Positions 56,659 to 62,559 of a stretch of 64,000 nucleotides of DNA are shown piece after piece. The number at the start of each line of letters is the position of its first letter. The first letter of the stretch is position 1. The notes beneath the pieces were generated by a model. The model searched no databases. It had not been told where the DNA came from and was given only the letters and a program-made list of their open reading frames with translations. Source of the stretch: a virus; the IMG/VR virus record IMGVR_UViG_3300036770_006330. One strand, given 5' to 3'. The position numbers were made by a program, and so were the translations under genes.

Positions 56659-59600
56659 GTGGGAAACTCTAATCCAGATTTTGCGAATAAAGCCCTAAGG
56701 GACATTTCGCGACGCGGTGATTTCGAAATTGAGTTTGTACCCACGCTTGCCACCAAGGCGGATAAATCTCCGAAGACTGACGAAGCAGAAAAAGAAAAGT
56801 CGTACGCCAACGCGTATGACGAATACATCAAAACATGGGAGCCGGGTGACGTTCTCCCCATTGTCCCACCAGGAATAAAGTGGCATCTTTGCAGATTTAA
56901 TCCAAGCCGTCTTGCCCAAGAATCTGAAGTTTTTGAGGTCGAGGGGCAGCCATCTGGGCTAAAACAAAAAAGTCTTGAGGACCAGATTGAAATCGATTAC
57001 AAGGTACTCGGCAGAAAATTGAGAGATAGCGTTGAGTCGCTGCTTCGAAGAGCGGCAGGTGCACGCGGACTTTGGGTGGACGACAAGAATAAACTTAGGT
57101 GTCCTCCGGGTACTCCAGCCGCAAACCAGTTTACCGACATCACGGGAGCAAACTGTTTCATTCCGACACCCCGTACAGCCGCGCAGAGTGGTGCGCGAGC
57201 AGTGAGGCGAGCAGCACAGGGCGCAATGGCCCGCGGAGCACAAGTCGGAGAGCGAGTACCCGAGACATTCGATTTCGCCCGTGCGACCCAAGCCCAAATA
57301 CAAGAGCTTGGATTTGAACGCGCACAAGAAGTGATGGCTGTCGGCGGAAGAATATCTCCTCCAGATGGAACAATTCCAACCGTCATTTCTGGAGCAATGA
57401 ATGTTCCAAACGCTCTTCGAATAGGAGCCCCAAGACCACAACAGCAAAGACAAGGAAGGGGTTCTGGTTTCCGTGGAGCGCCTCCCGGGAAGGGGGGAGC
57501 CCAAGGTGTGTGGCTACCAGGCCTTCGTGAGCAAATCTATAGAGGCAAAAGACTTACAGAACTTGCTGATTCACTAGACCAAAGAATAAGAAATCCGAAA
57601 TTGCCGAACGGACTGTTTCTGCCAACCGGAATGCCAGTTGGCGACATTAGAAATAAGCAAGAGTTCGTAAATGCCCTAAGCGCAATTTTCCCCAATGTTG
57701 ACCCGGCCGAATGGGGACAATTGTTTGATAACTCAATTCCACAAAATTTGTCTTACGTTGAGAAAAAACGCCTAAAGGAAGCGCTCGTATCATTTTGGCA
57801 AGGAATAATTGCTGAGGGAATTGCGAATCCACAGCACGCTCAGTGGGTTACTCAGATGAATATTGAAACAACTGGCGAAGACGCTTTTCGTGTTGACCTA
57901 ACGCCATACGCTCCGGACATTGTTTATGGCGGAAGACGAGCGTCTGCCACGGCGCTAAAACTGCAAAGCGGGCAAAAGGCATACGAAACAGGCGGTGTGC
58001 ACTTCTCCCTAAACATCAACCCTTTAAAGATGTATCAGCAAGCATTGGGAATAGGGTTCGATAAAAACGGCCGTGCCAACGGCGTTGTTGACTCAATCCA
58101 GGGTGATATGCATTATATGGCAACGCATGAGTTTGGGCATATTGCGCACTTCAGCTCAGCAATGCGCGCGCTTGGGTTTGACCCTAATAATTTGAACAGG
58201 TACCAACTGCAGCGCTCGCTTGTGGCTGGACAAGGTGGCCCACAGTGGCAACCGAAGGAAGGTGTTGGGGCTTGGGTTATCGATTTCACAAAAGCCAAAA
58301 ACCCTCTGAATAGCCCAAGTATTGACCTACTTATCGACGCTGCTCAAAACCTCAGGACAAGAACGTATACAGGGTATCGAACCTATTCGCGACAAGAGCT
58401 CGAGCGAGACCTTAACAATTTCCACATGGCCCTTCACGAGGCCGTACTCAATAACATCACCGATACGGCCGAAGAGCGTGAATTGATGAATCAGTTCGCA
58501 GGCGGCGCCTATGGCGCATCAAGCCCGATTGAGGTTCGCGCAGAATATTACGCAGCGCGCAGGCTTTTCAGCGGAGAAAAGGGACAACAAGACAATGTTG
58601 ACCTATTTGCAGATGCTCTTTCCAAGGCGCAGAATTCTCCATATAACGCGCAGCAAATCCGCCAAATACTGGATGATTCGGGCAAAAGAACGTTTGGCGT
58701 GTCCGGGCGAAACTGGAATATCAGCGGAAGAATGCAGTCGGCACAAAATCAACAACCGTCCCTTAAGACGAGGGCGGTTAGACGTGCGGTAGCCCAGCAG
58801 GGCGGAGGACGCAGGTCGTCGGGGAGCATATCTGGCTCAATGAGGGCTCCAGGAGTCGATAGGAGCGTCGCGAGTTCTAGAGACTGGAAAGCAGACGACA
58901 CATTAAACAATCGATTCAATATTGAGGGCGAGCTATTCTCGGCGCGCGACATAGAAGCATCATTGCCGTCGATGATACGCACAACTCGCACAACCCAGCC
59001 AAGACAGCTTCGGTCAATATCTGGAAGTATGAAAATGATGGCTGACCCTGATGCGCGTCCGTACGGCAAAATACGAGATGGTGGAAATATTAGAGACATT
59101 GAAGTTGAGGGCAAGCAGTACTCATTTAATGGTGAAAAAATAATTTTTGATAACCCTGAAATATCTTACGAGGACCAATCAGTAAAAGTAATTGCGCGAA
59201 ATCCATTTGCGATAACGGGCATGGACGAAACCAGCACAAAGGGTAGGCAGCTGGCGGAGAAGTGGACGGCAGCACACATAGGAAACGGCTTAGACAGCGG
59301 CCGTGAATCCACAGAAATTGATGCACTCCTGTACGCGGGAACAAGGGGCGACACGGAAGCCATGGAGGAATTCGAAAGACTTGCAGGCATTGGACAGCAA
59401 GCGATTGACGATAAGAAGAGACAACAAAAGACAGAAGTAAACTTAAGCCAATCTCAGTTGTCGGAAATACGTCGTGAAGGCCTGGATGACTTGAGTGTGG
59501 ATGACCTATACATAATCCACGAGACCGGCTACACACCGCAACCAGATGCAAACGGTGATATTGAAATAAAACCGCTGTCCGATTTCGACACGACAACCAA

Positions 59601-62559: not shown

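Follow-up and report, generated by a model that had tools for sequence, protein, structure and literature searches.

A recurring linker pentapeptide separates exchangeable cassettes of a giant phage cargo protein and probably marks sites of proteolytic processing

Polyvalent proteins of phages and conjugative elements have been defined and predicted to undergo processing by zincins, with no cleavage sites given (Iyer, Burroughs, Anand, de Souza, Aravind 2017, PMC5512222). In a second group of systems, internal head or ejection proteins are processed by prohead proteases (T4 gp21 with IPI-III, phiKZ gp175, SPN3US gp245; PMC10052503, PMC5694885), and for SPN3US and phiKZ the documented processing of head proteins is extensive (PMC10052503). 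We analysed a 64,000-nucleotide (nt) stretch of viral DNA (IMG/VR record IMGVR_UViG_3300036770_006330; hereafter the window), which is part of an uncultured HK97-type myovirus of ~167 kb, and in it a protein of 1966 amino acids (aa), here called cargo A, whose seven cassettes are separated by six copies of a pentapeptide. The pentapeptide is probably a proteolytic processing code, to which we give a rough probability of 0.75, and its reader may be a zincin-like metallopeptidase within cargo A itself, a tentative assignment that we rate slightly short of an even chance.

The open reading frame (ORF) of cargo A lies on the plus strand (56659..62559), with a GTG start at 56659 that matches the MGNS... 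starts of its homologues in alignment and a stop at 62559. Its six linker motifs, all on the plus strand, are ISGAM (aa 243-247; 57385..57399), ISGRM (aa 688-692; 58720..58734), ISGSM (aa 724-728; 58828..58842), ISGSM (aa 787-791; 59017..59031), ISGFM (aa 1177-1181; 60187..60201) and VSGKM (aa 1470-1474; 61066..61080), and I or V precedes every SGxM of the protein. Codon use varies among the copies (ATT, ATC, ATA or GTA for the first residue, TCT, AGC or TCC for Ser, GGA or GGC for Gly). Direct re-reading returned all six, with their differing codons, exactly where a first-pass annotation of the sequence had reported them. The same annotation had expected well under one such match in a protein of this length, and 20,000 composition-preserving shuffles of cargo A agreed, with a mean of 0.03 copies and a maximum of 2, placing the observed number beyond chance. 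An origin of the motif by chance or as a DNA repeat was ruled out by the shuffles together with the codon differences.

The codons also bear on a reading in which the motif provides internal translation starts at its Met codons, giving nested products. An ATG does end each copy, with a Gly GGA codon just upstream. In four copies, however, the purine stretch lies just 1-2 nt away from this ATG, and the GGC copies, two in number, lack it; real starts carry GGAG at a distance of 6-7 nt. Because AGC and TCN codons both serve for Ser, it is the peptide that is under selection, and the corresponding codes of sister clades (RLSSG, GFASR; see below) contain no Met. We regard internal starts as very improbable, and the earlier suggestion that each product might begin at the Met of the motif fails as a general rule on the same Met-less codes.

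Relatives of cargo A were found exclusively outside cultured phages. The protein collection held 42 homologues, every one metagenomic, and a total of three contigs from metagenome-assembled genomes matched among GTDB genomes. In IMG/VR a single-protein query was without match, while an alignment query with the conserved N-terminal core gave 257 relatives, of which 80 loci were retrieved. Among GenBank phages (tblastn, megablast) no DNA match was found, indicating that there is no cultured relative, and protein matches were confined to the exonuclease domain. Generalised to [ILV]-[ST]-G-x-M, the motif is kept in ~40 metagenomic homologues and ~40 IMG/VR loci. A consensus from 174 sites has A, R, K or S at x and flanks rich in Gly, Ser, Pro, Arg and Asn. 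Near homologues carry [IV]SGxM at matching places and distant ones [ILV]TGAM, and the motif is retained down to ~30% identity. Conservation is highest at the second copy, which follows the zincin in the context WN[ILV][ST]GxM, and the first copy, in a variable, indel-rich stretch of the alignment, has decayed in some lineages.

All six copies in cargo A are cassette borders, giving the string D242 / A445 / E36 / M63 / G390 / C293 / B497 (class letter and length). When 43 homologues were split at the motif and the pieces clustered (BLASTP, 60% mutual coverage), the pieces fell into classes of constant length, and the cassettes between motifs are inserted, dropped and reordered as wholes. The layouts of two homologues (P0008 and P0013) differ solely by the insertion of one unit, G384. 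Cassette C is placed directly behind a short peptide in some homologues and behind K570 or F467 in others, so that the order of C, F and K varies, and a few homologues have J355, an ATLF-like second zincin (PF07737, E = 1.3e-07), attached behind B. With the window cassettes as phmmer queries, the exonuclease was located at position 799, 1378, 1804 or 2287 depending on the relative. The role of domain delimiter that the first-pass annotation had given to the motif is therefore retained in the homologues, with the domains between the motifs swapped as whole cassettes. Four IMG/VR loci (L050, L055, L072, L076) encode a short cargo A homologue of ~620-640 aa that has no HExxH, and neither giant proteins nor a recurring linker word were found in the 20 kb examined at these loci.

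Such borders can be set against the proposal that the motif is not cut and serves as a short linear docking signal in flexible linkers, for capsid loading, ordered tail ejection or chaperone binding. Every carrier of the motif, including the tape measure protein described below, is expected to pass the tail channel, which would suit a docking signal, as would the comparative nature of the support for cleavage. A docking signal, however, has no need to flank each domain, whereas a motif between every pair of cassettes and exchange exactly at that motif are the signature of polyprotein junctions, and cargo A itself contains a conserved predicted protease. We consider docking an improbable explanation.

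The motif is not restricted to cargo A. A six-frame scan of the window found 13 occurrences of [ILV]SGxM, 11 of which were in cargo A (6), the tape measure protein (4) and the prohead protease fusion (1). The other two, a lone VSGTM (16328, ORF 15581-16552) and LSGWM (25993), lie outside virion genes and are probably chance occurrences, being near the background rate for such a scan of 64 kb. The copy in the protease fusion is VSGRM (aa 593-597; 53997..54011, plus strand), directly behind a Pro-rich linker, and orthologues in T-type genomes have VTGAM or ITGAM at the matching site. In the tape measure protein (1615 aa; 33651..38498, minus strand) the copies, all on the minus strand, are LSGSM at aa 44 (38355-38369), LSGAM at aa 51 (38334-38348), LSGAM at aa 566 (36789-36803) and ISGAM at aa 807 (36066-36080). 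Shuffles of this protein gave 0.2 expected copies and none of 20,000 reached 4, and the positions are kept in four relatives. Three complete relatives (G001, G002, G003) have their copies of the motif mainly in cargo A, giant proteins C, D and E, the protease fusion and the tape measure, which has three sites, near residues 50, 590 and 850. The major capsid proteins of these three and of a further complete genome with a different code (G005) contain no copy of their own genome's code. At its C-terminus (window ~33940-33970, aa ~1511-1520) the tape measure protein has a SxHxxGxAxD word, SDHATGHAYD, followed by HLHV, and from this sequence the C-terminal region looks like a LAS/M15-type zinc peptidoglycan peptidase.

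Variants of the motif are common to different proteins of one genome, with S versus T at position 2 and A versus R at position 4. Counting only proteins other than cargo A, T occupies position 2 in 13 of 17 sites of G002 versus 1 of 18 sites of G003 (Fisher P = 2e-5), and R occupies position 4 in 2 of 17 versus 11 of 18 (P = 0.0045). Genome-wide sub-codes of this kind are what a single trans-acting reader per genome predicts. More distant loci, related through the N-terminal core only, have other recurring words in place of the motif: R[LF]SSG (RLSSG, RFSSG) in several loci, GLSSG in L082, GMRSxR in L053 and L065, GFASR in L061 (with the GFAS core 10 times) and GFRSxR in L068. In G005 a 3479-aa giant protein has the word xLSSG 11 times, cargo A five times and a 3024-aa protease fusion four times. 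The G005 tape measure protein also has it, at residues 41 and 612, and the first of these sites aligns with that of the window (KLSSGR in G005, RLSGSM in the window). By sequence comparison, then, the code switches between clades within the same proteins, the tape-measure site included, although the capsid proteins of G001, G002, G003 and G005 are 79% identical. In other clades (G005 93880-102951, L118/L119; L084 2-7756; L053 2427-7643) the S78 protease domain forms the N-terminal part of proteins 1700-3000 aa long, and these large proteins are themselves polyproteins with the linker code of their clade.

If the code is cut, the enzyme might be another phage peptidase, with its gene at some other place in the genome, or a host protease encountered at entry. 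Homologues with extra zincin cassettes (J, and several cargo proteins with a second HExxH) speak for such an enzyme, as do the tape-measure sites, which require one that is active outside the prohead. A host enzyme, however, would need differences matching those between the codes of phages with 79% identical capsids, the sub-codes are specific to the phage genome, and the head modules examined showed no further conserved peptidase. We regard this alternative as about as improbable as docking, if anything slightly more so.

The seven cassettes of cargo A, all on the plus strand, start with cassette D (aa 1-242; 56659..57384), an RCP-core domain with RCPPG at aa 147, QFTD at aa 157 and a conserved Cys, all in invariant alignment columns. 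This is the best-conserved part of the family (GLWVDDKNKLRCPPGTPAANQFTD...C) and a candidate capsid-address domain. The core, RCPxG...(Q/R)FTD...C (window 57097-57138), recurs in diverged form near the N-terminus of a ~690-aa protein encoded two genes downstream (G001 75400-77448, L113:1101-3149; G002 81403-83472), the window copy of which starts at 63594 and continues past the end of the window. The common core may be a capsid-address or a zinc-knuckle-like domain.

Cassette A (aa 248-687; 57400..58719) is a putative zincin-like metallopeptidase with HEFGH at aa 490 (nt 58126-58140). Residues H490, E491, H494, E625 and E629 are invariant in 21 homologues, and a third ligand may be provided by the conserved Glu downstream of HEFGH, in RAEYYAA (aa 627). 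Cassette A had no match in Pfam, and a profile of the N-terminus and zincin likewise had none among the sequences of the PDB. Two short peptide cassettes defined by clustering follow, one basic (class E, aa 693-723; 58735..58827) and the other of class M (aa 729-786; 58843..59016). Cassette G (aa 792-1176; 59032..60186) is present or absent among homologues as a whole unit and was modelled as a compact domain with a predicted local distance difference test score (pLDDT) of 79.8. It had no significant Foldseek match, and a VIA-wide fold search gave Z scores of at most 5, mostly to the ADP-ribosyltransferase superfamily.

Cassette C (aa 1182-1469; 60202..61065) matches phrog_192 and, over aa 1226-1416, RNase_T (PF00929; 48.2 bits against a cut-off of 24), and it has the Exo motifs DYETTG at 1229, NAAFD at 1327 and HTADAD at 1405 (DxE, D, Hx4D). 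Judged by its profile score and by Exo I, II and III residues that include the His, it is a DEDDh (RNase T / DnaQ-like) 3'-5' exonuclease. Cassette B (aa 1475-1966; 61081..62559; pLDDT 84.8) was modelled as a SopF-like fold followed by a C-terminal helical part. The model aligned to SopF with a Z score of 11.8 over 239 residues (root mean square deviation 4.5) and to 7dn8 with a Foldseek probability of 1.00, with weaker matches to OspC3/CopC (Z ~7) and DarT (Z ~6), so that by structural prediction it has an ADP-ribosyltransferase fold (SopF / DarT-like). The invariant residues H119, Y156/E157 and E230 (cassette numbering) are candidates for catalytic residues. Pfam gave no match for cassettes G, B, F, K and U. 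In the AlphaFold models of G and B compact cores end in floppy, low-pLDDT stretches that hold the motif, as anticipated by the earlier placing of all copies in flexible linkers. The domain list given there also stands, with HEFGH at residue 490, the RNase_T match, and cassettes of 390 and 497 aa that fold compactly.

The candidate readers are this zincin and the S78 prohead protease encoded nearby (52221..54704, plus strand; 827 aa). The latter is a fusion of Peptidase_S78 (aa 23-171), DUF6321 (aa 180-251), a middle domain, the Pro-rich linker and a C-terminal domain, and it is recognised as Peptidase S78 by PF04586 (45.6 bits against a cut-off of 21) and by phrog_80. The S78 enzyme could read the same code if cargo A were co-assembled in the prohead and cut at maturation. 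The cargo gene is part of the head module, preceded by the portal and protease genes and followed, where relatives are complete, by the gene for the major capsid protein. Within its Pro-rich linker the protease fusion itself bears the code, in a variant that follows the cargo (VSGRM for the window and, for T-type genomes, VTGAM or ITGAM). The motif resembles the site logic of assemblin and gp21, in which an aliphatic residue stands two places ahead of a small one. Cutting in the prohead after packaging would supply a natural timing, and the processed head proteins of T4, phiKZ and SPN3US are a precedent.

The distribution of the code, however, makes the prohead protease a less likely reader and shifts preference to the zincin, because the major capsid protein, the canonical substrate of a prohead protease, has no code and the tape measure protein, which is assembled outside the head and is not a prohead component, has conserved sites at which the code changes from clade to clade. 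K[TS]IG[QE]MF is kept at the expected delta/mature border in the capsid proteins of G001, G002, G003 and G005, although the codes of their clades differ. We take this border to resemble the HK97 K/SLG site. Furthermore, the S78 domain is 77-93% identical to that of the window across all codes, at least four in number, with L065 (GMRSxR) at 83%, above some loci with the same code as the window, whereas the zincin region falls from 54% identity to undetectable. A near-constant enzyme is a poorer match to changing codes than a fast-evolving one, and we prefer the zincin for this reason too. Two further reasons are that all giant cargo A proteins keep the unit of core plus HExxH and that zincin processing of polyvalent proteins had already been predicted (PMC5512222). 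It may be added, as speculation, that the one hydrophobic residue present in each code, within an otherwise polar linker, would suit the S1' pocket of a zincin. The first-pass annotation had proposed a polyprotein cut at SGxM by either the prohead protease or the zincin; the code and the cassettes find support, and the prohead protease as reader is disfavoured by a code that is in the tape measure and not in the capsid. We consider the S78 enzyme an unlikely reader, although it is the main rival of the zincin and clearly a better candidate than an enzyme encoded elsewhere.

Under the preferred reading, with the zincin as the enzyme, cargo A would be a virion cargo ('polyvalent') polyprotein of seven self-folding cassettes on flexible linkers, each linker bearing a pentapeptide, and [ILV]-[ST]-G-x-M would be cut in trans by a single phage-encoded endopeptidase. 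The same code would mark other proteins that exit the virion with the DNA, namely the C-terminal part of the S78 fusion, the tape measure protein and the further giant proteins of the head module. The zincin, located right behind the candidate address domain at the N-terminus, would cut inside the capsid or following ejection into a new host. Cleavage would free the zincin, the DEDDh exonuclease, the enzyme with the SopF-like ADP-ribosyltransferase fold and a domain without assigned function as separate early effectors. What points to delivery of cargo A with the DNA is the position of its gene in the head module.

Several points weigh against this reading. All of its support is comparative, and the peptidase activity of cassette A is predicted from the conserved HExxH and Glu pattern. 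Since the zincin evolves faster, its divergence in step with the code may reflect lineage and not cause, and a tree of S78 domains set against the code labels had a backbone without resolution that cannot decide between the two. The code in the S78 fusion's own linker fits classical autoprocessing of a prohead protease equally well. One cargo A protein (L084) has an aberrant HEVGAH and yet retains a GLRS code, with a HELGH protein adjoining. A capsid-borne zincin could reach the tape measure protein only by cutting after ejection or in the cytoplasm. A search among the loci for zincin-less genomes with a code gave no clean case, the loci with a small cargo having neither code nor giants. A predicted complex of the zincin cassette with an ISGFM linker peptide scored 0.09, which counts neither way.

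The neighbouring genes place the polyprotein gene in a head module, both in the window and in complete relatives. The module opens with a portal fused to a Mu F-like head-morphogenesis domain (49851..52133, plus strand; PF04233 at aa 666-756), and this fusion is kept in all relatives. The large terminase (48300-49604) and the tail sheath (39736-41193) are on the minus strand. In every relative two proteins without a family match separate the protease from cargo A: in the window a Cys-rich protein of 128 aa (54708-55094), with a weak ADPrib_exo_Tox match under the cut-off (E = 0.001), and a ~500-aa protein (55091-56587) that is very acidic and has Cys clusters. These two may be a scaffold or loading factor. 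In relatives the gene order is portal-MuF, protease fusion, two small genes, cargo A, two small genes, the ~690-aa protein, a giant protein of ~1800-2400 aa, a small gene, a protein of ~700-1280 aa, a giant protein of ~3500-3900 aa and the HK97-type major capsid protein (PF05065). In G001 giant protein E (L098:6666-18419; 3918 aa) contains NUDIX, two sigma-70 region 4, DnaJ and Zeta-toxin/AAA_33 domains, mostly with copies of the code between them, and one VSGIM lies inside the DnaJ match.

The general notion of a multi-effector protein that virions deliver and an embedded zincin processes was published earlier (PMC5512222). New are an explicit junction code that is not Glu-directed, the exact match of this code with the borders of exchangeable cassettes, the presence of the code in the tape measure as well, and the speed with which it changes between phages whose capsids are nearly identical. 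A broader and rather doubtful picture, in which we place less trust than in the zincin as reader, would be a DNA-virus counterpart of the polyprotein strategy of RNA viruses, with ~9,000 effector residues per genome carried in a few giant threads that each open with a common address domain. After ejection these threads might be cut by a co-injected zincin that reads a code of 4-5 residues and also trims the tape measure protein, with code and reader co-evolving fast. If this were true, such co-evolution would isolate the cargo sets of closely related phages, and new domains could plug in between two copies of the code.

For the proposed processing of polyvalent proteins the code offers defined sites, a candidate enzyme and, from sister clades, natural code-swap controls. 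In annotation it is a simple rule to split giant phage ORFs that otherwise resist annotation, opening hundreds of cassettes without assigned function to study. Were the reader confirmed, the pair would be a compact protease and site with naturally orthogonal variants and a possible tool. With the tape measure included, a single processing system links the cargo of the head to proteins of the tail, which may be relevant to a long-standing puzzle, the processing of tape measure proteins.

When compared with known systems, cargo A shares features with four of them. It resembles the T4, phiKZ and SPN3US type in its head-module genes, in one short motif spread over many cargo proteins and in cutting that is presumed to follow assembly. 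The motifs of these phages, however, are Glu-directed and common to the capsid protein and scaffold, whereas the cargo A code has no fixed Glu at P1 and an occasional Glu at the variable position, the capsid is without the code and the tape measure has it, and the code varies while the S78 protease stays nearly constant. The polyproteins of positive-strand RNA viruses, with junction codes of the 3C/NS3 type, likewise have one product, an internal protease and a short junction consensus. Unlike them, cargo A belongs to a DNA phage, each genome encodes several proteins of this kind, its products are probably delivered effectors and not replication proteins, and its cassettes are exchanged freely among relatives. 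Phage P1 Dar proteins and MuF-fused polymorphic toxins are also head-packaged anti-host proteins loaded via a head-morphogenesis partner, and in this phage a MuF domain is encoded next door, fused to the portal. Dar proteins, however, are separate gene products and MuF toxins have a single C-terminal toxin, and neither has a repeated junction code.

In domain content cargo A resembles the polyvalent proteins, giant multi-domain phage proteins that join a zincin-like metallopeptidase with nucleic-acid and NAD-using effector domains and for which delivery alongside the DNA and processing by the embedded peptidase are predicted, as proposed here for cargo A. These are recognised by at least two unrelated effector domains, and a single ORF here combines the zincin motif, the RNase_T exonuclease and the SopF-like ADP-ribosyltransferase fold. 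Neither the LPD domains nor any other signature Pfam domain of polyvalent proteins turned up in a Pfam scan of the whole of cargo A, in which PF00929 was the sole match. Unlike polyvalent proteins, cargo A has an explicit code at every junction. Other virion proteins share this code, which differs from clade to clade and frames the exchangeable cassettes.

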